Of a DNA stretch of 64,000 nt, positions 7,707 to 58,103 are shown piece by piece. Position numbers and translations under genes: made by a program. Every line of letters begins with the position of its first letter. The stretch's first letter is position 1. A model generated the notes under the pieces. The model saw only the letters and a list, made by a program, of their open reading frames with translations, was not told the origin of the DNA and made no database searches. The stretch lies in the NCBI GenBank assembly GCA_965204665.1, contig OZ242002.1, positions 1,497,995 through 1,561,994 on the forward strand, read 5' to 3'. The DNA comes from Thermodesulfobacteriota bacterium. Its GTDB lineage: Bacteria; Desulfobacterota_D; UBA1144; Nemesobacterales; Nemesobacteraceae.

Positions 7707-7740
7707 AAATCTGGGTCTCAATTTCTTGAGACCCAGATTT
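7707..7740 (-). terminator. Hairpin terminator after RTX-lipoprotein paralog 1
   Basis: Perfect stem aaatctgggtctcaa/ttgagacccagattt with A/T runs on both sides. It is homologous to the hairpin after paralog 3 (56389-56424). Confidence 0.55.
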
Positions 7741-7815
7741 ATCTCGAAAAAAACGAACAGGGTTTACTGAATATAAGGCGGGGCCGTTTCTTTTACGAAA
7801 ACAACTTCACCTGAT

Positions 7816-9255
7816 TCAGTCTACGAACTCATACTTGTTCTGGCTGATTATATTCCCCGCTCGGTCGTTGTTTGCCGAGCCGCTTACTCGTATCTCAACA
7901 ACTTCAACTGCTCCTACGGAAATCTTGCCGGCAGCGTTGGTCAACGCTCTGGCCCCCGCCGCGAAGCCGCTGAACTGAATCTTGTCGTCCGCCAGTGTGA
8001 AGTCCGTAATGATGTCCACACCGCCGTCGGCTTTTCTGATGAGGAAAGTGTCGTTTCCGGCTCCTCCCGTAAGGTTGTCGGCGCCTTCTTCGCCTATGAG
8101 AACATCATTTCCCGCTCCGCCGTTGAGATTGTCTTCGCCTTTACCGCCTCTGAGGGTGTCGTTTCCTCCCCTACCTTCAAGAGTGTCGCCGGCGTTTCCT
8201 CCTGTGAGAGTATTCGCCTTGCTGTCCCCTTTGAAAGTAACAGATGAAATACGAGGAGCGGACCTGAAACTTGCCAGTACGGCTGAAAGGTTCTCGAAGT
8301 TGGACATATTGGAAGTATGAGTGCTGTCTGTAAGATCGAATTCGTTTCTGTGCCCGGTGCCGTCCACCGTGTAGGTGTTGCCTTGGATGAAATACTGACC
8401 TCCGTACACTATAAGAGTATCGTTGCCTTCACCGCCGTCTGCCGTACCTGCAGAGCCGTTAGCAAATTTAAGAGGAGAGGGTTCGATCGTATCATCTCCC
8501 TTGCCGCCTATCAGAGTATCCGCACCGTACCATCCGATCAGAACGTTGTCCCCGTCGTCTCCCGTGATGTGGTCGTCACCTCTGCTGCCCGCAACATCCT
8601 CGATACTCTCAAATGTATCATTCCCGAATGTGGCGTGCGTGAAGGTTTCTGAACTGAGGTCGAAAGTAACAGCCACCTTCCGCGTGTCACTCGATATATT
8701 CCCGCCGAAAGCAGCAGGGGGACCGGAAAAAAATAACATGTCCCGCCCGAGGCCGCCGTTGAACGTGTCGTCTCCCGGGTCCGTAATGAAGAAGAAATCA
8801 GTTCCCCCGCCGCCGTGGAGTTCATCATTTCCGGCGTCACCATAGATATCCTCGCTCCCGTCACCGCCGTAGAGAGTGTCGGTACCTGCTCCACCCCGAA
8901 TATAGTCATCCCCGCCTTCGCCGTAAACAACATCATCACCGTCTCCGGCTCTGATCTCGTTGGTGTCATCATTTCCGCAGATGACGTCGTCATCTGCGGT
9001 TCCCTGAATTAACCGTACGCCTCTCACCGCATTTATACCGTCACTTCTATCGCATCTGGGATCATCGGTCGGTGCCGGGTCCCCGCCCGGGTCACCTTTG
9101 TCCCCCTTATCTCCTTTCGGTCCCGCCACTCCAGGGTCTCCCTTATCTCCTTTTGCCCCGTCTTTCCCTGCCGGACCCATCTCTCCTTCACAGGCGGCAA
9201 GGAAAACCGCTCCGCCGAGCAGAAACAACATCACTAAGAAATTACGTAATCTCAT
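7816..9255 (-). CDS. Lipoprotein with collagen-like Gly-X-Y repeats and RTX (GGxGxD) calcium-binding beta-roll repeats, paralog 1
   Basis: Signal peptide plus lipobox (LAAC), then GPAGKDGAKGDKGDPG...-type triplets, then many GGAGNDTL / GGxGxD nonapeptide repeats. The C-terminal ~230 aa are about 90% identical to paralog 3. GGAGG RBS. Confidence 0.85.
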   Translation of the reverse strand: MRLRNFLVMLFLLGGAVFLAACEGEMGPAGKDGAKGDKGDPGVAGPKGDKGDKGDPGGDPAPTDDPRCDRSDGINAVRGVRLIQGTADDDVICGNDDTNEIRAGDGDDVVYGEGGDDYIRGGAGTDTLYGGDGSEDIYGDAGNDELHGGGGTDFFFITDPGDDTFNGGLGRDMLFFSGPPAAFGGNISSDTRKVAVTFDLSSETFTHATFGNDTFESIEDVAGSRGDDHITGDDGDNVLIGWYGADTLIGGKGDDTIEPSPLKFANGSAGTADGGEGNDTLIVYGGQYFIQGNTYTVDGTGHRNEFDLTDSTHTSNMSNFENLSAVLASFRSAPRISSVTFKGDSKANTLTGGNAGDTLEGRGGNDTLRGGKGEDNLNGGAGNDVLIGEEGADNLTGGAGNDTFLIRKADGGVDIITDFTLADDKIQFSGFAAGARALTNAAGKISVGAVEVVEIRVSGSANNDRAGNIISQNKYEFVD

Positions 9256-9357: not shown

Positions 9358-9384
9358 ATTTTACCCCCCCCCGATTTGAGTCAA
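9358..9384 (-). promoter_or_regulatory. Sigma70-like promoter with poly-G(9) spacer tract upstream of paralog 1
   Basis: On the minus strand: TTGACT - caaatc + G9 (15 nt spacer) - TAAAAT. It lies about 100 nt upstream of the ATG at 9255. Confidence 0.6.
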
Positions 9385-18093: not shown

Positions 18094-18171
18094 TGGCGTC
18101 CCCGAGGGGATTTGAACCCCTGTTACCGGCGTGAAAGGCCGATGTCCTAGACCTGACTAGACGACGGGGAC
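18094..18171 (-). tRNA. tRNA-Glu (anticodon TTC), CCA encoded
   Basis: Reverse complement GTCCCCGTCGTCTAGTCAGG...CTTTCAC...GGTTCAAATCCCCTCGGGGACGCCA folds as a cloverleaf. Confidence 0.85.
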
Positions 18172-18182
18172 ATAAAAAGACA

Positions 18183-18255
18183 TGAGCCGTACAGGATTCG
18201 AACCTGTGACCCACTGCTTAAAAGGCAGTTGCTCTACCAGCTGAGCTAACGGCTC
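18183..18255 (-). tRNA. tRNA-Lys (anticodon TTT)
   Basis: Reverse complement GAGCCGTTAGCTCAGCTGGTAGAGC...CTTTTAA...GGTTCGAATCCTGTACGGCTCA. Confidence 0.85.
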
Positions 18256-18532
18256 GTAAACGGCGGGATGATACCATAAAAGCTGCTGTTGTCAAAAACC
18301 GGAATCTGATACGATTTGACCTGTCGATGGAACCTCCGTAAATTCTTATGCGTGCCGATATTCGTATTCATCGGTATATGGCCCTGAAGGAAGTTTGGAA
18401 ACCCTACGGAGCCGATGCCCGTTACTGGTTTCGATCATTGATGTTTCCGGCTCTCAATACCTCGGTCACGGGTTGGAAACACCGCTCTTCAACTATGAGA
18501 TATGCGGACTATTTCTATAAGGAAGTGTAATC

Positions 18533-21355
18533 ATGCGCCTGTCGTGGAATGAGGTCCGCATCAGGGCTGCCTCTTTCGCCGAGGAATGGAAGGATGCGAC
18601 CTACGAGAAGGGCGATACACAGAGTTTCTACAACGATTTTTTCGAAGTGTTCGGAGTTCGTCGGCGAAGCATCGCACGCTACGAGGAGCATGTCGCGAAG
18701 TTGAATGACAGCTCCGGATTCATCGACTTATTCTGGCCGGGCGTTCTCATCGTCGAACAAAAGAGCGCCGGGCGCGACCTGAAGGCAGCCTACGAACAGG
18801 CCGGCGAGTATTTCGACGCTTTGTCCGAAAACGAACGCCCGCGCTACATCCTCGTCAGTGACTTCCAGACCTTCGATCTTCACGACCTCGACGAGCGCGG
18901 AAAGGTCTCCTTTCCACTCGCGGACCTGCCCAAGCGTATCGAAGCGTTCAGTTTTATATTGGGTGTGCAGCGCAGGACCTTCCGCGATCAGGACCCGGCG
19001 AACATCGAGGCCGCCGAACTGGTCGGGCTGCTTCACGATGCGCTCGGAGACACCGGGTACAGCGGGCATGACTTGGAGCAGTTCTTGGTGCGGATTGTCT
19101 TCTGCCTGTTTGCCGACGACACGGGTATCTTCGAGCCGCGCGACCTCTTTCTTGATTTCCTTGAAGAACGTACCGGCGAGGACGGGGCAGATCTCGGTCC
19201 GCGACTTGCACAACTGTTCCAGGTCCTGGACACTCCGGAGGTCGAGCGTCAGAGCACGCTCGATGAAGACCTCGCATGTTTTCCTCATGTAAACGGCGAA
19301 CTATTCAAGGGGTCTCTGCGCATTCCGGCGTTTGACTCGGCGATGCGCACTGCACTGCTGAATGCCTGTCGCTTCGACTGGTCGAACATCTCACCCGCAA
19401 TCTTCGGAGCGCTTTTCCAGTCTGTGATGGAACCGGCGGAACGCCGCGCCCGGGGTGCGCATTACACGACCGAAAAGAACATCCTCAAAGTGATCGAACC
19501 ACTTTTCATGGACGGCCTGCGCGCCGAGTTTGAGCGGATCAGGACGCGGCGCGGACGCAACCGTCTCGCCCTGCTTCGTCAATTCCATGCAAGTCTCGGC
19601 AGTCTGACGTTCTTCGACCCCGCGTGCGGTTGCGGCAACTTCCTCATCATAGCCTACCGTGAACTGCGCCTGCTGGAAATCAAGGTCATCCAGGAGATCA
19701 GGAATGCCACCTTCACGACCCGATATAGAGAACTCAATGTCGTCTGGCAATCTGTGGTGGATGTGGACCAGTTCTACGGAATCGAGATCGGAGAGTTCCC
19801 CGTTCGCATAGCTGAAACGGCGCTTTGGATGATGGATCACATCATGAACAACCAGCTGAGTCTTGAGTTCGGCCAGAGTTTTGTTCGTATCCCGCTTGAG
19901 AAGTCGCCGCACATCCTTCACGAGGACGCGCTGGAAGCAGACTGGTCGGACCTGTTGCCGCCGGGCGAGTGCTCCTTCGTACTTGGGAACCCGCCTTTTG
20001 TCGGGGCGAAGTATCAGACACCGGAGCAGCGCGCTCAGGTGCACGGGGTCGCGATGCTGGGCAAGAGCGGCGGCACGCTGGATTATGTCTCCGCATGGTT
20101 CATCAAGGCGGGCGAGTACGTGAAAGGTGAAAATGTCCGCATCGGCTTTGTCGCGACCAATTCGATCACCCAGGGCGAACAGGTCGCGCAGCTCTGGCCG
20201 ATCCTGTTCGAGCGTTGTCGGATGGAAATCGCCTTCGCGCACCGGACCTTCGCTTGGGGGTCGGACGCGCTGGGCAAAGCGCATGTCCATGTCGTCATTC
20301 TCGGCCTTGACCGCCGCGAGGCAGTACCGTCGGATAGGCGTCTGTTCAGTTATCCCGACATAAACGGCGAACCGGAAGAAAGCCGCCACGCTGCGCTGTC
20401 TCCCTATCTTTACGATGCCGCGGGGCTGTCGGACCCGCATCTGACGGTGCGGGAGGAAAACCGGCCGATCAACGGGATGCGGAGACTGATTATCGGTTCC
20501 CAACCCATCGACGGCGGCAACTACATATTCGATGAGCAGGACCGCGCCGCGTTTCTTGATGCGGAGCCGGATGCCTCACCCTATCTTCGACCTTTCATAG
20601 GGGCGAAAGAATACCTACAGGGCGGCAAGCGTTGGATTCTGGCTCTGCACGATGTGCCGCCCGATGCGCTGGCGCGTCTGCCGCGCGTACGCGAGCGGAT
20701 CGTTGCGGTTCAGACCTATCGCCGGAAGAGTAACCGTAAATCGACTCTGAATCTTGCCGAGACTCCTATGCTCTACCAGGTCAATCTTCTTCCCACCGAA
20801 CCGTTTCTGTTGATTCCTCGGGTCAGTTCCGAGCGGCGGGAATATGCGCCCATCGGCTGGCTGGAGCCGCCGGCTATTCCCAGCGATGCCGCGCTTGTGC
20901 TTCCTGAAGCCACCTTGGAGGATTTCGCGCTGTTGACTTCTGCGATGCACATGACGTGGCTGCGCCATGTCGGCGGGAGACTTGAGAGTCGCTACCGCTA
21001 TTCCATCGGCCTTGTGTACAACACTTTCCCGTCGCCTCCTGCAGGCGCGGACCTGTCGAAGTTACGACCCCTGGCGCAAGCCGTGCTCGATGCCCGGGCC
21101 GATCATCCAGGTGCAACACTAGCCCGCCTGTATGATCCCGTCCTTATGCCGCCGAACCTGCGCCGTGCGCATCAAAAACTTGACCGTACGGTGGACCGGC
21201 TCTACCGGCGTACCGGATTCAGGTTCGAGTATGAGCGTGCGGAACATCTGTTCTTACTCTATGAGAAGATGCTCGCACCGCTGCACGCCGGTCGGAAGAA
21301 GACGCGACGGCGCCGACCGGGGAGGGTCGTACCGATGAAAAGAGCGAGTTGCTGA
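18533..21355 (+). CDS. MmeI-family Type IIL restriction-modification enzyme (single-chain endonuclease + gamma-class N6-adenine methyltransferase + TRD)
   Basis: N-terminal D-x9-ExK nuclease motif (IDLFWPGVLIVEQKSAG). MTase motif I FFDPACGCGNFLI and motif IV GNPPFVG. Family blocks NSITQGEQV, GGRLESRYRYS and LVYNTFP. The gene is strongly GC-rich compared with its neighbours. Confidence 0.8.
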   Translation: MRLSWNEVRIRAASFAEEWKDATYEKGDTQSFYNDFFEVFGVRRRSIARYEEHVAKLNDSSGFIDLFWPGVLIVEQKSAGRDLKAAYEQAGEYFDALSENERPRYILVSDFQTFDLHDLDERGKVSFPLADLPKRIEAFSFILGVQRRTFRDQDPANIEAAELVGLLHDALGDTGYSGHDLEQFLVRIVFCLFADDTGIFEPRDLFLDFLEERTGEDGADLGPRLAQLFQVLDTPEVERQSTLDEDLACFPHVNGELFKGSLRIPAFDSAMRTALLNACRFDWSNISPAIFGALFQSVMEPAERRARGAHYTTEKNILKVIEPLFMDGLRAEFERIRTRRGRNRLALLRQFHASLGSLTFFDPACGCGNFLIIAYRELRLLEIKVIQEIRNATFTTRYRELNVVWQSVVDVDQFYGIEIGEFPVRIAETALWMMDHIMNNQLSLEFGQSFVRIPLEKSPHILHEDALEADWSDLLPPGECSFVLGNPPFVGAKYQTPEQRAQVHGVAMLGKSGGTLDYVSAWFIKAGEYVKGENVRIGFVATNSITQGEQVAQLWPILFERCRMEIAFAHRTFAWGSDALGKAHVHVVILGLDRREAVPSDRRLFSYPDINGEPEESRHAALSPYLYDAAGLSDPHLTVREENRPINGMRRLIIGSQPIDGGNYIFDEQDRAAFLDAEPDASPYLRPFIGAKEYLQGGKRWILALHDVPPDALARLPRVRERIVAVQTYRRKSNRKSTLNLAETPMLYQVNLLPTEPFLLIPRVSSERREYAPIGWLEPPAIPSDAALVLPEATLEDFALLTSAMHMTWLRHVGGRLESRYRYSIGLVYNTFPSPPAGADLSKLRPLAQAVLDARADHPGATLARLYDPVLMPPNLRRAHQKLDRTVDRLYRRTGFRFEYERAEHLFLLYEKMLAPLHAGRKKTRRRRPGRVVPMKRASC

Positions 21356-39124: not shown

Positions 39125-40615
39125 TCACGCCGTCTGCGGACCGTAAACACTCCTCCCCGCGCAATACTCCCTGAATTTTTCCACACCCGGGATGTTCAAA
39201 ACCCGGGTCAAGTTGTAAGTCAGCGTCATCAGACTGAACTCTCCCCTGCACTTCTCAAGTCCCCGCATAAGAAACTGATGAAAACCGTTTCCGACCTTCA
39301 ATGTTCCGAACAGATGTTCAACAATTCTCCCCCGCTTCCTGATCTTCTCTTCTCCCTGTTCCATTCTCCGCCTGTGCCTCTCAAGCACTTCATGGTGTTC
39401 CCATCTTTGTATCAATCTGACTTGCTTCTCACCGATACAATGCCTGCGCATCGAACACGCCCTGCAGTCCGCACTTCTGCTTGTATATATAGTGTACCTC
39501 TTCCCATTTCTAACCCTTGGTTTTACGCGGGGGTCAGCCTCCTGCCCTGCGGACAATGATAACAATCCTCTCCGGCATCGTAAGTGAATTCGTCAAGACT
39601 GTAACGCCCCCGTTGTTTCATTCTCGAACTGTTGTCGGGAACAGGAACATAGACTGTAATGTCCTCATCCTCGCACCGCTTCAGTTCCATGCTCTCGTAA
39701 TAACCTCCGTCAGCCAGTCCTGTCAATTGTTCCGTATCAAGACTTTTCTTCGCTTCCGTAAGCATCCCGGCCAGTTGATGGTTGTCCGTGCCGTCCTGAA
39801 CCACATTCTCGGCAACTACAAGCTTGTGCTTCGAATCCACCGCTATCTGCGCGTTGTAACCCGCCACGCTCTGCCCCCGCTTCCTGAGCAGCCTCGCGTC
39901 TTTGTCCACCTTTGACACCTGAGTGTCACCACTTCTCTCCATGCGGTCCTTAGTCTCCCGATTCTCCTTCTGACGCTTCTTCAACTTCTCTATCTTCTCC
40001 CTCAACATCTTGTCGTTGCCCGCATCCTGTCTTCCCGCCTTCTCATCAGCGGCGTCAGCCTCCTCAAGTTCCTGCTGATACTCTTCTATCCTGCTCTCTA
40101 TATTCTCCAATTCCCTGTCTATATACCCTCGGGTCCGTATGCTTGCCCTGCTCGCGTCCGCAGAAAAGAAAGAACCGTCGACCGCCACCTCATCCCCGCC
40201 GAACAGGGATAACTCCCTGCACAGCAGAACAAAATCCCTGTTGACCTTCCTCAGTTGCGCCGCATGGTTCTTGCGGAAATCAGCAATGCTCTTGTAAGAC
40301 GGCCGCATCCCTTTCACCAGCCAAATCACTTCGAGATTCCTTCCGGTCTCCGCTTCCAGCTTGCGGCTGCTGCGTATACCATGCTGATATCCGTAAAGAT
40401 GCAAGCTTCAACATCGCCCACGGATTATAGGGAGGCTGCCCCGCTGTGGTGCCGGCCTCGGTATGCCTGAATCCCATGGAAGACAGATCAAGAGTGTCGA
40501 CGTAGGCATCAAGCGCCCGAACCTGGTGGTTCTCTCCGACATAGTCTTCCACTCTCTCGGGCAGAAGCAGTGTTTGTCCTCGGTCAAGTGCGGGTTTGTA
40601 TCGGCGTCGGTTCAT
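39125..40615 (-). pseudogene. IS1182-family (IS5 superfamily) transposase interrupted by two frameshifts
   Basis: Three consecutive ORFs in different frames together give about 497 aa: InsH-N-like (MLKL...YGYQHGIRSSRKLE), a coiled-coil middle, then a DDE/C-terminal YHCPQGRRLT...C..C..C segment. The shifts are near 40390 and 39540. Confidence 0.75.
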
Positions 40616-40756
40616 TGCGTATTACACCTCGGTATCAAGAATATGGAGTAATCGTACCTTAAGAAAGAGGATATATCAACACCTAACTGCATGTAATGCA
40701 AAGATAATTATGCTGTTGTATCAGCCGAGGGGGGGGGGATGAGGAAATCAGATTCT

Positions 40757-40829
40757 GTAAAAACATCTCGGTTCCGAGATATATGCTGAACAATGCAGAA
40801 TCTCAGAATACTTTCACAGTCTCAATTGG
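40757..40829 (+). repeat. Copy of Fic-gene 5' module (promoter + first 11 codons MQNLRILSQSQ), truncated
   Basis: Matches 56469-56538 (+) and 54630-54714 (-). The ORF stops after 17 codons here. Confidence 0.7.
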
Positions 40830-40940
40830 GGCAATCCTGCTAAAAAGTGACCTCAAATAAGCCCTGCCGTTTAAGTCGCGTTCACCGCGGAGGCGCTCAA
40901 AACGCTCTCCTCGGGCGTCTTTCCGTCTTTTCTCCCGAAC

Positions 40941-42257
40941 TCAGTCCACGAATTTATATAGGGTTGACGTACGGATTGAATTTCCTGTGGCGTCATCCTG
41001 CACATCAAATAAATTGTCTGATCCTATAGTGATCGTGCGACCCGATCCTGTCACCGTAGACCCGTTTGGAAAACCTTTGAACTGAAGTATATCGTTCTGA
41101 GAGGCGTTAAAGTCTTTAATATTATCCTTGTTGCTTCTGTGCGCGTACCTGATTTGAAAGGTGTCGGCACCGGCACCGCCCGTAAGAGTATCGGCACCGG
41201 CTTGTCCGTCGATCAGATCATTTCCGCCTCTTCCGTCAAGGGTATCGTTCCCGGCTAACCCGTCTAAATAATTTCCCAGGTTGTCTCCATTAAGAGTATC
41301 ATTTCCGTGTCCACCGAAAAGGTTCTCAATACCTGTAAATGTAATCGATCCTCCTCCATGACCACCGGCGTCAAAAGTCCCCGCGGCAAGATCAACGGTT
41401 CCAGCTGTATTATTTTGTGCGGAACGGATAAAACCATCCTTCACGGCCTGTATTCCCAGGCGGGGATCATCAGTTTGAATGCTCTCTAGGATTATAGCAT
41501 CACCAGTTTGCCGACCATTCCTGACAGCAGTTCCTATCGGGGGGCCGCCGTTAAAGGTGTCGTTGCCTTTACTGTTGACGAGATAAAATATATCTGCCCC
41601 GTCTCCACCGTTGAGCGTATCATTGCCTTCGCCGCCATGGAGAATGTCCCGCCCCGCATCGCCGTTGACCGTATCATCGCCGTCTACTCCCCGGATGAAA
41701 TCAATGCCGTCTCCGCCATGTAGGGTGTTAGCGCCGGCGTTGGCCCAGATGACATCCTCTCCATCTCCGCCATAGATGACGTCATCGGTAGTTTCCGTGC
41801 CTATGCTGCCTGCAACCTGAGCATCGACTTTGTCATCTCCGTCTTCACCGTATATCGTATCCGTGCCGGCACCACCGGCTATCGTGTCGTTTCCGGCACC
41901 ACCGTAAACAGTATCATCTCCGGCTCCGGCACTGATGTTGTTCACGTACTGATTTCCGCAGATGATGTCGTCATCTCCAGTCCCCGTGATATTATTGGAG
42001 ACACCGGGCAGAGCATTTATACCGTTGCTCACGTCGCATCTGGGGTCACCGAAGGATTTTCCCTGATCTCCCTGCGGGCCCGCCGCTCCCTGTGTTCCCG
42101 AGTCTCCTTTATCACCCTTATCTCCTTTCGCCCCGTCTTTACCTGCCGGACCTGTTTCCCCCTTCGGGCCTGCCGGCCCCATATCCCCTTCACAGGCAGC
42201 AAGGAAAACCGCTCCGCCGAGCAGAAACAACAACACTAAGAAATTACGTGACTTCAT
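40941..42257 (-). CDS. Lipoprotein with collagen-like Gly-X-Y repeats and RTX calcium-binding repeats, paralog 2
   Basis: MKSRNFLVLLFLLGGAVFLAACEGDMGPAGPKGETGPAGKDG... followed by GGAGxDT repeats. It is more diverged than paralogs 1 and 3 but has the same architecture and the same C-terminal YKFVD ending. Confidence 0.85.
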   Translation of the reverse strand: MKSRNFLVLLFLLGGAVFLAACEGDMGPAGPKGETGPAGKDGAKGDKGDKGDSGTQGAAGPQGDQGKSFGDPRCDVSNGINALPGVSNNITGTGDDDIICGNQYVNNISAGAGDDTVYGGAGNDTIAGGAGTDTIYGEDGDDKVDAQVAGSIGTETTDDVIYGGDGEDVIWANAGANTLHGGDGIDFIRGVDGDDTVNGDAGRDILHGGEGNDTLNGGDGADIFYLVNSKGNDTFNGGPPIGTAVRNGRQTGDAIILESIQTDDPRLGIQAVKDGFIRSAQNNTAGTVDLAAGTFDAGGHGGGSITFTGIENLFGGHGNDTLNGDNLGNYLDGLAGNDTLDGRGGNDLIDGQAGADTLTGGAGADTFQIRYAHRSNKDNIKDFNASQNDILQFKGFPNGSTVTGSGRTITIGSDNLFDVQDDATGNSIRTSTLYKFVD

Positions 42258-42285: not shown

Positions 42286-42313
42286 ATTCTACCCCCCCCC
42301 CATATGAAGTCAA
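42286..42313 (-). promoter_or_regulatory. Sigma70-like promoter with poly-G(10) spacer tract upstream of paralog 2
   Basis: On the minus strand: TTGACT - tcatat + G10 (16 nt spacer) - TAGAAT. GGAGG RBS before the ATG at 42257. Confidence 0.6.
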
Positions 42314-54561: not shown

Positions 54562-54599
54562 TAACCGTTCGGTCAAGGTGTGGCAGATTGGGAGGTTTC
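54562..54599 (+). repeat. Conserved non-coding motif, copy B
   Basis: taaccgttcggtcaaggtgtggcagattgggaggtttc, compared with copy A at 2706-2743. Confidence 0.5.
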
Positions 54600-54629
54600 A
54601 GATTCCTTTGAAACGGTCGTAATCAGATG

Positions 54630-54714
54630 AGACTGTGAAAATATTCTGAGGTTCTGCATTGTTCAGCGTAGACCTTGGAACCGAGATGTTTTTACAGAAT
54701 CTGATTTGTCCCCA
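54630..54714 (-). repeat. Inverted copy of Fic-gene 5' module (MQNLRIFSQS...), truncated
   Basis: Reverse complement matches 40745-40829 and 56469-56538. Confidence 0.7.
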
Positions 54715-54722
54715 TTTCCCCG

Positions 54723-54747
54723 TAACCGTTCGGTCAAGGTGCAGGCG
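54723..54747 (+). repeat. Conserved non-coding motif, partial copy C
   Basis: gtaaccgttcggtcaaggtgcaggcg. Confidence 0.4.
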
Positions 54748-54821: not shown

Positions 54822-54848
54822 TTGACTTCAGTCGGGGGGGGGTAAAAT
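54822..54848 (+). promoter_or_regulatory. Sigma70-like promoter with poly-G(9) spacer tract upstream of paralog 3
   Basis: TTGACT - tcagtc + G9 (15 nt spacer) - TAAAAT. AAGGAG RBS 8 nt before the ATG at 54907. Confidence 0.6.
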
Positions 54849-54906
54849 CAAAAACATGTTCATAGAGACTATGTACAAACAAAATATATTTTAAGGAGTT
54901 TATGTC

Positions 54907-56334
54907 ATGAGATTACGTAATTTCTTAGTGATGTTGTTTCTGCTCGGCGGCGCGGTTTTCTTTGCTGCCTGTGAAGGGGATATGGGTCCGGCGGGTCCGA
55001 AAGGAGATAAGGGCGACCCGGGAACACCGGGACCGGCAGGACCTCCAGGAGCACAAGGACCGGCGGGACCCTCGGGCGATGTCTCCGGTGATCCCAGATG
55101 CGATGTAGGTAACGGCATAGATTCGACTAAAGGCCAACGGGTGATCCAGGGAACCGATGGTGACGATGTCATCTGCGGGAATAATACCGTCAACGACATT
55201 AAAGCCGGTGATGGTGACGACATTGTCTACGGTGCAGGAGCCGACGATGATATATACGGTGAGAAAGGTGACGACACTCTCTACGGAGAAAACGGACAGG
55301 ACTTTATTCGGGGTGGAGAAGGTAACGATGTTCTCTACGGTAACGGTGAGAACGACGATGTCTATGGCGGCCCCGGAAATGATAAACTCTACGGCGGAGA
55401 AAGAACTGATTTCTTCTTCATCGCGGACCCGGGAGACGATACGTTCGACGGCGGTCCCGGTCCGGATATGTTAATTTTTTCCGGTCCTACTCCTAATAAC
55501 GGCGGTAATATACCGGAAACCACGCGGAATGTGGCTCTTACTTTCGACCTCCGTTCAAAAACCCACACGCACGCCACGTTCGGGACTGATGCATTTGAGA
55601 GTATCGAGGATATTGCGGGCAGTAGAGGTAACGATCATATTACAGGAGACGACGGGGACAATGTTTTACTGGGATGGTACGGTACGGACACTCTGATAGG
55701 CGGCAAGGGAGATGATACGATCGAACCCTCTCCTCTTAAATTTAATAACGGCTTTGCAGGTACAGCAGACGGCGGTGAAGGCAACGATACTCTTGTAGTG
55801 TACGGAGGTATGTATGTAATCCAGGGCAACACCTACACGGTGGACGGCACCGGGCACAGAAACGAATTCGATCTTGAAGACAGCAGTCATACTTCCACTA
55901 TGTCCAACTTCGAGAACCTTTCAGCCGTACTGAGAAGTTTCAGAACTCCTCGTAGTTCATCTGTTACTTTCAAAGGGGACTCCAAGGCTAATATTCTCAC
56001 GGGCGGAAACGCCGCAGACACTCTTGAAGGTAGAGGAGGGAACGATACTCTGATAGGCGGCAAAGGCGCCGACAACCTTACCGGCGGAGCCGGAAACGAC
56101 ACTTTCCTCATCGGAAAAGCCGACGGCGGTGTGGATATCATTAAGGATTTCACATTGGCGGACGACAAGATTCAGTTCAGCGGCTTCGCAGCGGGGGCCA
56201 GAGCGTTGACCAACGCTGCCGGCAAGATTTCCGTAGGAGGAGTTGAAGTTGTTGAGATACAGGTAAGCAACTCGGCAAACAACGAACTAGCGGGGAATAT
56301 CATCAGCCGGAACAAGTATGAGTTCGTAGACTGA
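54907..56334 (+). CDS. Lipoprotein with collagen-like Gly-X-Y repeats and RTX calcium-binding repeats, paralog 3
   Basis: MRLRNFLVMLFLLGGAVFFAACEGDMGPAGPKGDKGDPGTPGPAGPPGAQGPAGPSG..., then GGxGxD repeats. Its C-terminal region is about 90% identical to paralog 1. Confidence 0.85.
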   Translation: MRLRNFLVMLFLLGGAVFFAACEGDMGPAGPKGDKGDPGTPGPAGPPGAQGPAGPSGDVSGDPRCDVGNGIDSTKGQRVIQGTDGDDVICGNNTVNDIKAGDGDDIVYGAGADDDIYGEKGDDTLYGENGQDFIRGGEGNDVLYGNGENDDVYGGPGNDKLYGGERTDFFFIADPGDDTFDGGPGPDMLIFSGPTPNNGGNIPETTRNVALTFDLRSKTHTHATFGTDAFESIEDIAGSRGNDHITGDDGDNVLLGWYGTDTLIGGKGDDTIEPSPLKFNNGFAGTADGGEGNDTLVVYGGMYVIQGNTYTVDGTGHRNEFDLEDSSHTSTMSNFENLSAVLRSFRTPRSSSVTFKGDSKANILTGGNAADTLEGRGGNDTLIGGKGADNLTGGAGNDTFLIGKADGGVDIIKDFTLADDKIQFSGFAAGARALTNAAGKISVGGVEVVEIQVSNSANNELAGNIISRNKYEFVD

Positions 56335-56388
56335 ATCAGGTGAAGTTGTTTTCATAAAAGAAGCAGCCTCGCCCCATATTCGGCAAGA

Positions 56389-56424
56389 GAAACCCGGGTC
56401 TCAAGAGATTGAGGTCCGGGTTTC
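56389..56424 (+). terminator. Hairpin terminator after paralog 3
   Basis: gaaacccgggtctcaa-gag-attgaggtccgggtttc. This is the homologous position to 7707-7740. Confidence 0.5.
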
Positions 56425-56468
56425 TGCAGTAAAGGGAAAACCTTGATTCAGACAGGGCGAAAGAGACC

Positions 56469-56538
56469 GTAAAAACATCTCGTTTCTGAGATCTATGCTG
56501 AACAATGCAGAACCTCAGAATACTTTCACAGTCTCAAA
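56469..56538 (+). repeat. Fic-gene 5' module (promoter + start of ORF), full copy leading into the Fic pseudogene
   Basis: gtaaaaacatctcgtttctgagatctATGctgaacaATGcagaacctcagaatactttcacagtctca. Confidence 0.7.
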
Positions 56539-57508
56539 TCGGGAAAACACAAACTGCGGGACAATCCGCCGGCACTTATGCCAGGCGTATACTCAATCGG
56601 TTGCTGATTGATCTTGCGTGGAATTCCAGTCGTCTGGAAGGGAATACATACTCATTGATCGACACTGGGAGACTGATAGAATTCGGTGAAGAAGCGGCGG
56701 GAAGGAACCATACTGAAACGCAGATGATCCTTAACCACAAGGATGCAATTGAATTTCTGGTCGACTACGCCGACAAAATCGACTTCAACAGACACTCGAT
56801 ATGTAATCTGCATGCATTGCTGTCAAATAACCTGCTGGCGAATCGTGCGGCATCCGGACGCTTGCGTAGTATCGCCGTCGGCATCGGAGAGTCGGCTCTC
56901 CACCACTTGAGATACTGCAACTGATTGAAGAATGCTTTGCGCAGATACTGTCCAAAGCGGCCGGGATCGGGGACCCGTTCGAGCAGGCATTTTCCGTATT
57001 GGTTCACATACCCTATCTGCAGCCTTTCGAAGATGTGAACAAGCGTGTTTCGTGCCTAGCGGCCAACATTCCTCTGATTCGCAATAATTTCGTGCCGTTG
57101 TCTTTCACGGATGTTCCGAAGGATGCTTATACAGAAGCCGCCCTCGGGGTATATGAACTGAATGATGTCGCGTTGCTCAAAGATGTCTTCTTGCGGGCCT
57201 ATGAACGGTCAGCGGCAAAACATATCTCTGTCCAGCGGGCACTGGGAGAACCGGATGTCTTTCGTCTCAAATATCGGACCGAATTGCGTGAGATAATAGC
57301 CGAGTTGATTCGAACTGGAACCGGGCGTGCGCAAGTCACAGCTGAAATCGTACAGTGGGCGGAGAACAGAATCAGGCTTGATGACCGCGATGCGTTCGTG
57401 GAAGTCGTCGAGGAGGAACTCATAGAACTGCATGAAGGAAATTTTGCACGCTACAAGGTGCTGTTATCCGAATATGTTGCATGGAAGGATGTATGGACCG
57501 CGAAGTAA
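56505..57508 (+). pseudogene. Fic/DOC-family protein with degenerate active-site motif and a frameshift
   Basis: N-terminal LIDLAWNSSRLEGNTYSL (Fic_N-like) in frame 0 stops at 56924. Frame 2 is open from 56870 and carries ...DPFEQAFSVLVHIPYLQPFEDVNKR, i.e. HPFx(D/E)GNGR degraded to QPFEDVNKR. Confidence 0.55.
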
Positions 57509-58103
57509 GAAAATCGTTAGAGGTGTGTTTGACGATTGCAAGTAGGTTTCAGGCAATAAACCGAGAAGGTTTAGATTTACCGGAAGTGAAGTAGTGGGGG
57601 GGGGCCGATGCTTGTGTTGAAAAACTCATACCCGCTGAGTATTATTTGAAGAAAGGGAAGGCAATCCCGCAGCATAAGGATGGAGTAAAGGCGATGACGA
57701 TTTGTAAGTACGACATGGAAAGATTACCGCGGTCATCGTGATGCCGATGTGTCGAGTCTTCCTTTCATTTCAAAATGCCCTTTGTTTCAAGACTCGGACT
57801 TTCTGACATGACTTTTCAGGTCAACTATTAGACGGGTCGCGGAAGTCGTTGTTTTTCCAACATTTATTTGCGCTGAACTGTAGGTGCGGGTGGACCGGCA
57901 TATGACAGTCGCTGATGCCCGCTACAGACTTAAGTCCATCCACCCGATAATCATTGCATGATGAAACACCGGGTGCGGTTTCGTCATGAAAATGGTTCAT
58001 CAATTTAGGTTGTATCGGGTCGGAAAGTCTGATATCGGCCTGAGCATTTTTTCAGGAATCGGCTACTATAATCATTTATGACTGAGCGCGGAGGTTTTTA
58101 CGT

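Follow-up and report, generated by a model that had tools for sequence, protein, structure and literature searches.

The window analysed here, a 64,000-nucleotide stretch of contig OZ242002.1 from a Thermodesulfobacteriota bacterium, contains three paralogous genes (g1, g2 and g3) whose products combine a lipoprotein-type signal peptide, a collagen-like run of Gly-X-Y triplets and an RTX β-roll. All three open reading frames (ORFs), which an earlier note on this sequence had described together with their N and C termini, are present.

7816–9255, minus strand: g1, 479 amino acids, an ORF found where the earlier note placed it.
40941–42257, minus strand: g2, 438 amino acids, without the insert at residues 271–375; 15 triplets; C terminus LYKFVD.
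54907–56334, plus strand: g3, 475 amino acids; signal peptide and lipobox at residues 1–22, 12 triplets at 24–59, Cys65 and Cys90, three RTX β-roll blocks and a cap that runs to YEFVD.
54893–54898, plus strand: Shine–Dalgarno sequence of g3, AAGGAG, 8 nt upstream of the ATG, read directly.
54976–55083, plus strand: collagen-like segment of g3 (residues 24–59), 12 unbroken Gly-X-Y triplets starting two residues past Cys22.
55102–56331, plus strand: RTX region of g3 (residues 66–475), with rungs every 9 residues (70–190, 212–297 and 354–400) and the cap at 400–475.

The N termini of the three proteins read MRLRNFLVMLFLLGGAVF(L/F)AAC and MKSRNFLVLLFLLGGAVFLAAC, and in each of them Cys22 lies inside a lipobox that satisfies a PROSITE-style rule. 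Bacterial lipoproteins of this kind start with a basic stretch and a hydrophobic core that lead into a lipobox, [LVI..][ASTVI..][GAS]C, whose Cys is at about residue 15–35. Unbroken triplets begin at residue 24 and number 12 in g1, 12 in g3 and 15 in g2. Both g1 and g3 end in NKYEFVD, and g2 ends in LYKFVD. At the protein level g1 and g3 are 79% identical overall and 88–91% identical over residues 271–475, which bears out the value of about 90% put forward earlier for their C-terminal parts; g2 is 43% identical to g3.

The domain assignment made in the earlier note (lipobox, collagen-like run and RTX β-roll) is borne out by hidden Markov models, a structure model and a fold search. The Pfam family HemolysinCabind matches the three window copies with E values of 2.5e-35, 5.6e-33 and 1.3e-38 and with 5–6 matched stretches in each. 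Pfam Collagen passes its gathering cutoff of 27.2 in g2 only (score 30.5, compared with 22.5 for g1 and 17.5 for g3), and a precomputed PF01391 match exists for most members of the wider family described below. A scan of the three proteins against NCBIfam returned only partial matches below threshold, to RTX toxins, serralysins and Scl/Lcl collagen adhesins; the SclA, SclB and Lcl models reached 16–38 bits against cutoffs of 325–500, over the collagen part only. No LPXTG anchor is present, and the C terminus is YEFVD. The AlphaFold2 model of g3, a monomer built on a 59-sequence family alignment, has a mean predicted local distance difference test (pLDDT) score of 87 and a predicted template modelling score of 0.82. 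It shows strands every 9 residues at 70–190, 212–297 and 354–400 (pLDDT >90), forming a parallel β-roll, and a C-terminal cap in which the conserved YEFVD tail is the last strand and is buried (pLDDT >95). The parts modelled with low confidence are limited to the signal peptide and the collagen run, the latter with a pLDDT of 44–55, as expected for a monomer. Searched against the PDB with Foldseek, this model retrieved RTX β-rolls exclusively (top matches 7rah, 7usl, 1k7i and 2zj7, which comprise CyaA RTX blocks (7rah and 7usl), PrtC/serralysin and family I.3 lipases), and no catalytic or other domain. We regard the domain content and the β-roll fold as established.

The three-member family of the earlier note holds for the window only, and a check for members elsewhere, which that note had proposed, revealed a far larger set. 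A family search that covered 5.8 billion proteins placed g3 on a 1,980,752-bp contig with 27 other family clusters, and cluster look-ups added six distinct sequences, including g2. The source chromosome thus carries 34 distinct paralogues, which together occupy 45 kb, or 2.3% of its sequence. At least 23 more paralogues are encoded by a sister genome, OZ220467.1 (2.39 Mb, closed, labelled as a Thermodesulfobacteriota metagenome-assembled genome). The lipobox rule is satisfied by 33 of the 34 paralogues of the source genome and by all 23 of the 23 sister-genome proteins; the lipobox Cys is conserved at a fixed position in 56 of 57 members, and the Gly-X-Y run starts at +2 from it in the same proportion (56 of 57). 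All 34 paralogues have between 10 and 16 consecutive triplets, with Pro at about 30% of X positions and an abundance of Lys and Asp. Two Cys residues (65 and 90 in g3) are invariant over the 59 aligned sequences and would be competent to form a disulfide; the motif around them, DPRC...xxCG, is found in 30 of 34 paralogues with a spacing of 22–26 residues. The insert at residues 271–375 is present in about 40% of paralogues, and the most variable segment of the protein is a loop at residues 196–210.

Comparison of the DNA ligase LigA suggests that the lineage is Dadabacteria-like. The LigA encoded in the window is 77% identical to that of the sister genome and 60–63% identical to those of many small closed genomes, for which the only names attached are Candidatus Dadabacteria. 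A profile of the N-terminal module (signal peptide, collagen run and Cys motif), searched against 1.84 billion representatives, was matched end to end by only 11, which agrees with the earlier view that the combination is unusual; the remaining matches were to generic collagen or RTX repeats. We found no earlier description in the literature on collagen with RTX and lipoprotein, or on Dadabacteria with collagen or RTX. The lipobox, bacterial collagen, the RTX β-roll and the promoter homopolymer are each already known; what is new is their combination, the route other than type I secretion for an RTX protein, the scale of 34 copies and the lineage.

Two further RTX proteins were encountered near this family. 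Contig OZ219878.1 (2.0 Mb, labelled Thermodesulfobacteriota; its LigA, P0154, is 62% identical to that of the window) encodes a lipoprotein with RTX repeats that has no collagen run in the N-terminal region read and no poly-G promoter, and from this case RTX lipoproteins may predate the collagen stalk and the switch. At locus L060, a 299-aa RTX protein encoded at 1220–2119 on the minus strand, as the divergent neighbour of a family member, has a signal peptide of the ordinary, non-lipoprotein kind and is without a collagen run or a poly-G promoter.

Upstream of each window gene, a poly-G tract lies between −35 and −10 hexamers, 28–102 nt 5′ of the AGGAGG-ATG start.

54822–54848, plus strand: g3 promoter, TTGACT-TCAGTC-G9-TAAAAT (−35 at 54822–54827, G9 at 54834–54842, −10 at 54843–54848; spacer 15 nt).
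9358–9384, minus strand: g1 promoter, TTGACT-CAAATC-G9-TAAAAT (spacer 15 nt; C9 at 9364–9372 on the plus strand).
42286–42313, minus strand: g2 promoter, TTGACT-TCATAT-G10-TAGAAT (spacer 16 nt).

The layout TTGACT-N6-G9/10-TA(A/G)AAT is found at six of six loci of the same species, namely the three window genes and three paralogues from a second assembly, the latter all with G9. The sister genome yielded 11 non-redundant promoters from ten loci with the layout TTGACT-N5–7-G12 to G14-TAAA(A/C/G)T, and spacers are 15–16 nt in the source species compared with 18–20 nt in the sister. A 525-kb contig from a third strain adds a complete G13 promoter at locus L067. Two other genes, in L066, have runs of G19 and G13; neither counts as a complete promoter, the G19 copy for loss of its −35 hexamer and the G13 copy for a −35 region outside the sequence read. 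With these two L066 tracts excluded, the complete promoters number 18 without redundancy (6 from the source species, 11 from the sister genome and 1 from the third-strain contig). Counted by locus, a run of G9 to G19 lies about 30–100 nt 5′ of the ATG in all 18 of the non-redundant readable loci of the poly-G clade, 17 of which have the full layout, TTGACT-N5–7-poly-G-TA(A/G)A(A/C/G)T. In complete promoters the tract is always placed between the −35 and −10 hexamers, and the lengths overall, G9–G19, are above the roughly 8 needed for slipped-strand mispairing. Next to the G19 run (L066, 2375–2393) is a transposase, and the run may represent either a dead promoter or runaway expansion of the tract.

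Most spacers fall outside 16–18 nt, the exceptions being g2 and three sister promoters (L003, L007 and L008). A consensus promoter scanner that accepts spacers of 16–18 nt called the g2 promoter and left those of g1 and g3 uncalled. Given the N6 plus Gn design in both species, a G11 tract would yield the canonical 17-nt spacer. The sequence that flanks the promoter core of about 40 nt is unrelated between copies, and among four near-identical promoters the sole indel in the core is the length of the tract (G13, G13, G12 and G12). The promoter anatomy is conserved, and tract length differs between loci. Runs of at least nine G or C occur five times in the window compared with 0.27 expected (an 18-fold excess, P ~1e-5), and three of these are family promoters. 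Ordinary σ70-like promoters occur in this genome too, for example TTGACA-17-TAGAGT, 5′ of the DtxR gene. Other long G runs on the plus strand, G10 at 40729–40738 and G9 at 57596–57604, are not flanked by −35 or −10 hexamers.

A scan of JGI metagenomes for the promoter layout gave 14 matches, none of them from the collagen–RTX lipoprotein family. On five unrelated JGI metagenome contigs (L069, L075, L076, L078 and L081), TTGACT-poly-G-TAnAnT stands directly 5′ of lipoprotein genes that are not homologous to the family, such as MRLRLAGLFASLLCAAACGSD... and MKKFFNIFMVLLAFAFATTAFVSCSSD..., and uncultured bacteria may thus more widely use promoters with a homopolymer spacer for lipoprotein genes.

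The two ends of the genes evolve differently from their bodies. At conserved four-fold codons, third-position identity among six same-species paralogues is 0.86 in the signal peptide compared with 0.47–0.59 elsewhere, which indicates that the DNA of the 5′ end has been homogenised. DNA identity between g1 and g3 is 95% over the first 60 nt, 45–65% through the collagen run and 82–98% from about 55384 on, and homology stops about 52 nt beyond the stop codon. Relative to g3, g1 is thus a mosaic with a close 5′ 60 nt, a close 3′ portion of about 60% and a divergent part that spans the collagen run and the first RTX block (RTX-A). Variants of the 5′ untranslated region (UTR) are shuffled between family copies. 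The shared 3′ ends include hairpins.

56339–56425, plus strand: 3′ UTR of g3 with two hairpins, at 56339–56373 and 56388–56425, the second a 17-bp stem kept across paralogues.
7707–7812, minus strand: 3′ UTR hairpins of g1, the second of which (7740–7707) has a fully paired stem that differs from that of g3 by compensatory changes.

The two 3′ UTR hairpins have folding z-scores of about −6, and the second is found also at three paralogues outside the window (L060–L062), with 15 pairs, 4 of which show compensatory double changes. A consensus terminator scan left the hairpins of g1 and g3 uncalled because the T-run is short, and their identification rests on folding z-scores and covariation. An Rfam scan of the window detected three tRNAs only, with no match for this hairpin or for the 80-nt repeat described below. 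A shared 3′ UTR and hairpin had been proposed for the paralogues; it holds for copies 1 and 3, and the 3′ end of g2 is unrelated and without these hairpins. Overall, the core promoter, signal peptide and 3′ hairpin are homogenised, and the bodies diverge and are mosaic. The mosaic identity and homogenised ends fit gene conversion, as suggested earlier.

We favour, with moderate confidence, a reading in which the window genes belong to a large, lineage-restricted family of variable lipoproteins, processed by Sec and signal peptidase II (SPase II), trimeric and displayed at the cell surface, that vary through slipped-strand switching of promoters and through gene conversion. Beyond the observed features, we infer that the proteins are lipidated, form trimers and are exposed at the surface, that the promoters actually switch, and that phage, grazers or a host act as the selective agent. 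The lipobox signal peptide would direct Sec export, SPase II cleavage and lipidation of Cys22. As the Gly-X-Y run starts two residues past the lipid-anchored Cys, a triple-helical stalk is expected, and three chains anchored side by side could zip into it. Collagen has a standard rise of 0.29 nm per residue, at which 10–16 triplets would give a stalk of about 10–14 nm. The stalk, followed by the invariant Cys pair, would hold three Ca2+-dependent RTX β-roll heads, most likely on the cell surface, as a ‘lollipop’ like that of a collectin or Scl with its polarity reversed. The Cys pair and the lipobox point to passage through the periplasm rather than a type I secretion system (T1SS), a departure from the RTX export route (PMC3034196). 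Each gene would have its own σ70-type promoter, with the poly-G tract setting the distance between −35 and −10; slipped-strand mispairing during replication could lengthen or shorten the tract, so that the spacer enters or leaves the functional range of 16–18 nt. If each of the 34 loci switches independently, changing combinations would be displayed across the population, and recombination among copies might shuffle the exposed RTX parts anew and at the same time hold the promoter core, signal peptide and 3′ hairpin constant. More tentatively, we suggest that 34 independently switchable contingency loci, taking up 2.3% of a 2-Mb genome, encode a combinatorial coat of trimeric, lipid-anchored, collagen-stalked and Ca2+-dependent RTX heads in a bacterium of a candidate phylum that is possibly a sponge symbiont, a habitat hinted at by the metaMDBG style of the contig names and by Dadabacteria metagenome-assembled genomes in a sponge genome note.

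Several known systems share parts of this design. Homopolymers between the −10 and −35 elements of porA, fetA and opc alter σ-factor binding and are an established switch (PMC2791445). The arrangement here resembles that at these Neisseria meningitidis genes, in which a poly-G/C tract of about 9–14 between the −35 and −10 elements of a σ70 promoter controls surface proteins (PMC2791445). The Neisseria loci are single-copy and encode β-barrel proteins, whereas here the device is copied across a whole paralogous family and its switching would be by analogy. The Vlp lipoproteins of Mycoplasma hyorhinis likewise form a multigene family in which each gene has its own homopolymer promoter, with a poly-A tract in every vlp promoter that acts as an on/off switch through its length (PMC10502178). 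Vlp genes also share a conserved 5′ end and signal peptide, a divergent external region and size variation by repeat number, the last paralleled here by the range of 10–16 collagen triplets (PMC10502178). Differences from Vlp are that the tract is poly-G rather than poly-A, that 34 genes are scattered singly among housekeeping genes rather than held in a small cluster, that a collagen stalk and RTX β-roll take the place of short tandem charged repeats, and that the bacterium, a diderm, belongs to an uncultured lineage of environmental or symbiotic habit. The likeness to Vlp is a functional analogy only, with no sequence homology.

The collagen part is comparable to that of Streptococcus Scl1/Scl2, Bacillus BclA and Legionella Lcl in its unbroken, Pro- and charge-rich Gly-X-Y run, lack of hydroxyproline machinery and variation in triplet number between copies, and the same trimeric stalk-plus-head design would be expected. 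Stalks of the Scl/BclA/Lcl type span about 20–90 triplets, so that the stalk here, at 10–16, is much shorter; moreover, an N-terminal lipid anchor with a C-terminal RTX head replaces a C-terminal LPXTG or an exosporium attachment. The RTX part is similar to CyaA RTX blocks, the C-terminal domains of serralysins and lipases, and RsaA-type surface layers (S-layers) in its GGxGxDxUx nonapeptides, predicted Ca2+-binding parallel β-roll and C-terminal cap. Classical RTX proteins have no N-terminal signal peptide and carry an uncleaved C-terminal T1SS signal, unlike the cleavable lipoprotein signal predicted here (PMC3034196). Further departures from them are the conserved Cys, the lack of T1SS genes nearby and the lack of an enzymatic or pore-forming domain. 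Mycobacterial PE_PGRS proteins are also a large Gly-rich family with GGxGxD/NxUx Ca2+-binding β-roll motifs, export other than by T1SS and a link to surface variation (PMC5054227). PE_PGRS proteins differ in lineage and in export route (ESX/type VII) and have no lipobox, collagen run or homopolymer promoters. Animal collectins and C1q would work alike, with a short collagen helix beside Cys and three Ca2+-dependent globular heads, but they are non-homologous, have C-type lectin or gC1q heads and form soluble oligomers rather than lipid-anchored ones.

The main rival of switching is that the poly-G tract is a fixed cis-regulatory or structural promoter element, either the site of a regulator or a means of setting a weak promoter; the 34 genes would then be co-regulated, and their diversity would reflect many binding specificities. 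We consider this rather unlikely. The tract and the adjoining hexamers are strongly conserved, as a fixed element would be, and several observations weigh against switching. Lengths in the source species are narrow, with five of six tracts exactly G9, a uniformity that could mean that selection holds the length fixed or that consensus calling in long-read assemblies is biased at homopolymers, whose lengths may there be off by one base. The one orthologous promoter pair compared (sister genome and 525-kb contig) has G13 in both. Most promoters as assembled would be off, assuming that E. coli spacing rules apply in this lineage. The poly-G tract is missing from more distant relatives built on the same protein plan (the MRLRNLF... 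clade), indicating that the device was added within one subclade and that the tract is not essential to protein function. Yet across loci and species tract length ranges from 9 to 19 while the position between the hexamers is constant, and near-identical promoters differ in tract length alone. Tracts of G9 or longer are, as established knowledge, intrinsically unstable in all bacteria studied (PMC2791445), and no candidate regulator is linked to g1–g3 among the window ORFs scanned. As for the phase-variable promoters claimed in the earlier note, a homopolymer is present in the promoter spacer of every copy examined, and phase variation itself is what we infer from it.

Trimerisation and surface display also face objections. 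Two of the window copies (g1 and g3) score below the Pfam Collagen cutoff, and, in the absence of a nucleating domain, 10–16 triplets are few for a bacterial collagen helix to be stable. To our knowledge, surface exposure of lipoproteins is unstudied in this phylum, and we know of no sorting meaning for Glu at +2. The proteins might instead face the periplasm as an Lpp-like trimeric spacer or Ca2+ buffer, to which default Lol sorting to the inner leaflet of the outer membrane, a trimeric stalk of periplasmic dimensions (10–14 nm, calculated from the standard rise) and the transit of the oxidising periplasm implied by the Cys pair would all be suited. However, a diverging mosaic family of 34 members with hypermutable promoters and a hypervariable loop is hard to explain if hidden from external selection, and we hold this to be improbable. 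That the proteins are classical T1SS-secreted RTX exoproteins or S-layer subunits, the N-terminal hydrophobic stretch being no functional lipoprotein signal, seems very improbable. RTX proteins are defined by T1SS export (PMC3034196), and the repeats and the conserved C-terminal cap to YEFVD would be in keeping with it. But the lipobox Cys holds its fixed position in 56 of 57 members, no genes for a T1SS ATP-binding cassette (ABC) protein, membrane fusion protein (MFP) or TolC/outer membrane protein (OMP) were found among the 20 larger window ORFs scanned (including all immediate neighbours of g1–g3), and the last strand of the model, which the C-terminal residues form, is buried (pLDDT >95). 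RTX S-layer proteins are without Cys and are exported by T1SS (PMC3034196), and given the lipid anchor and invariant Cys pair here, the S-layer-like role suggested in the earlier note is not favoured.

The chance that a single locus was multiplied by the assembly is negligible, even though g1 and g3 are about 90% identical over 1 kb. Each of the three stands singly among different housekeeping genes with distinct, unique flanks (metH and HU for g1; an insertion sequence (IS) remnant and a DtxR–ZnuA operon for g2; tamB, engA, an M23 peptidase and ligA for g3), which already refutes the artefact, and the copies are 43–79% identical at the protein level. The 34 distinct proteins lie on one closed contig, and identical proteins occur in a second assembly. 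The copies are thus real, distinct loci, not the assembly artefact that the earlier note had allowed for.

Contingency loci, hypermutable repeats by which surface proteins are switched, are a textbook trait of host-adapted pathogens, and the same logic would apply here at the scale of a family in an uncultured organism of the Dadabacteria lineage; strong, fluctuating selection at the cell surface (by phage, grazers or host) probably shapes this lineage. If the switching reading is true, the family would be among the largest known that vary by promoter-homopolymer phase variation, and one that lies beyond the pathogens on which the definition of such systems is based. RTX β-rolls are normally tied to type I secretion, and the pairing with a lipoprotein signal and a disulfide-competent Cys pair is an unusual design that, if true, means export through the Sec/lipoprotein route in place of T1SS. 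Placed directly on a lipid anchor, the very short collagen run would serve as a minimal natural stalk for trimerisation, of interest for bacterial-collagen engineering and surface display, and the whole would amount to a collectin-like architecture invented in bacteria.

The surroundings of the window genes contain several repeats and mobile elements. A dispersed repeat of about 80 nt occurs at 40745–40834, 54628–54707 (inverted) and 56462–56546, with 88–93% identity between copies; one copy lies 3′ of g2 and the other two flank g3. Neither g1 nor three other family loci have it. A perfect 19-bp direct repeat, TAACCGTTCGGTCAAGGTG, stands on either side of the copy 5′ of g3, at 54562–54580 and 54723–54741, which suggests a MITE-like insertion (MITE, miniature inverted-repeat transposable element) or a local duplication. 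The G10 run at 40729–40738 abuts the repeat, and the matching position in the copy upstream of g3 is merely C-rich. Directly 3′ of g2, an IS remnant at 39523–40615 encodes a DDE transposase (DUF772 and DDE_Tnp_1) split into two overlapping ORFs, and IS or integrase genes also adjoin family loci L060, L063 and L066. Downstream of g3, two consecutive ORFs at 56505–57508 (139 and 169 aa), the first of which starts inside the 80-nt repeat, have no Pfam match and may be a disrupted gene; an assignment as a Fic-type toxin was dropped for want of such a match. Elsewhere in the window, an MmeI-type restriction-modification enzyme at 18094–21355 (940 aa, with all five MmeI domains) adjoins tRNA-Glu and tRNA-Lys genes and has a GC content of 55% compared with about 47% elsewhere, and this stretch is probably a horizontally acquired island.

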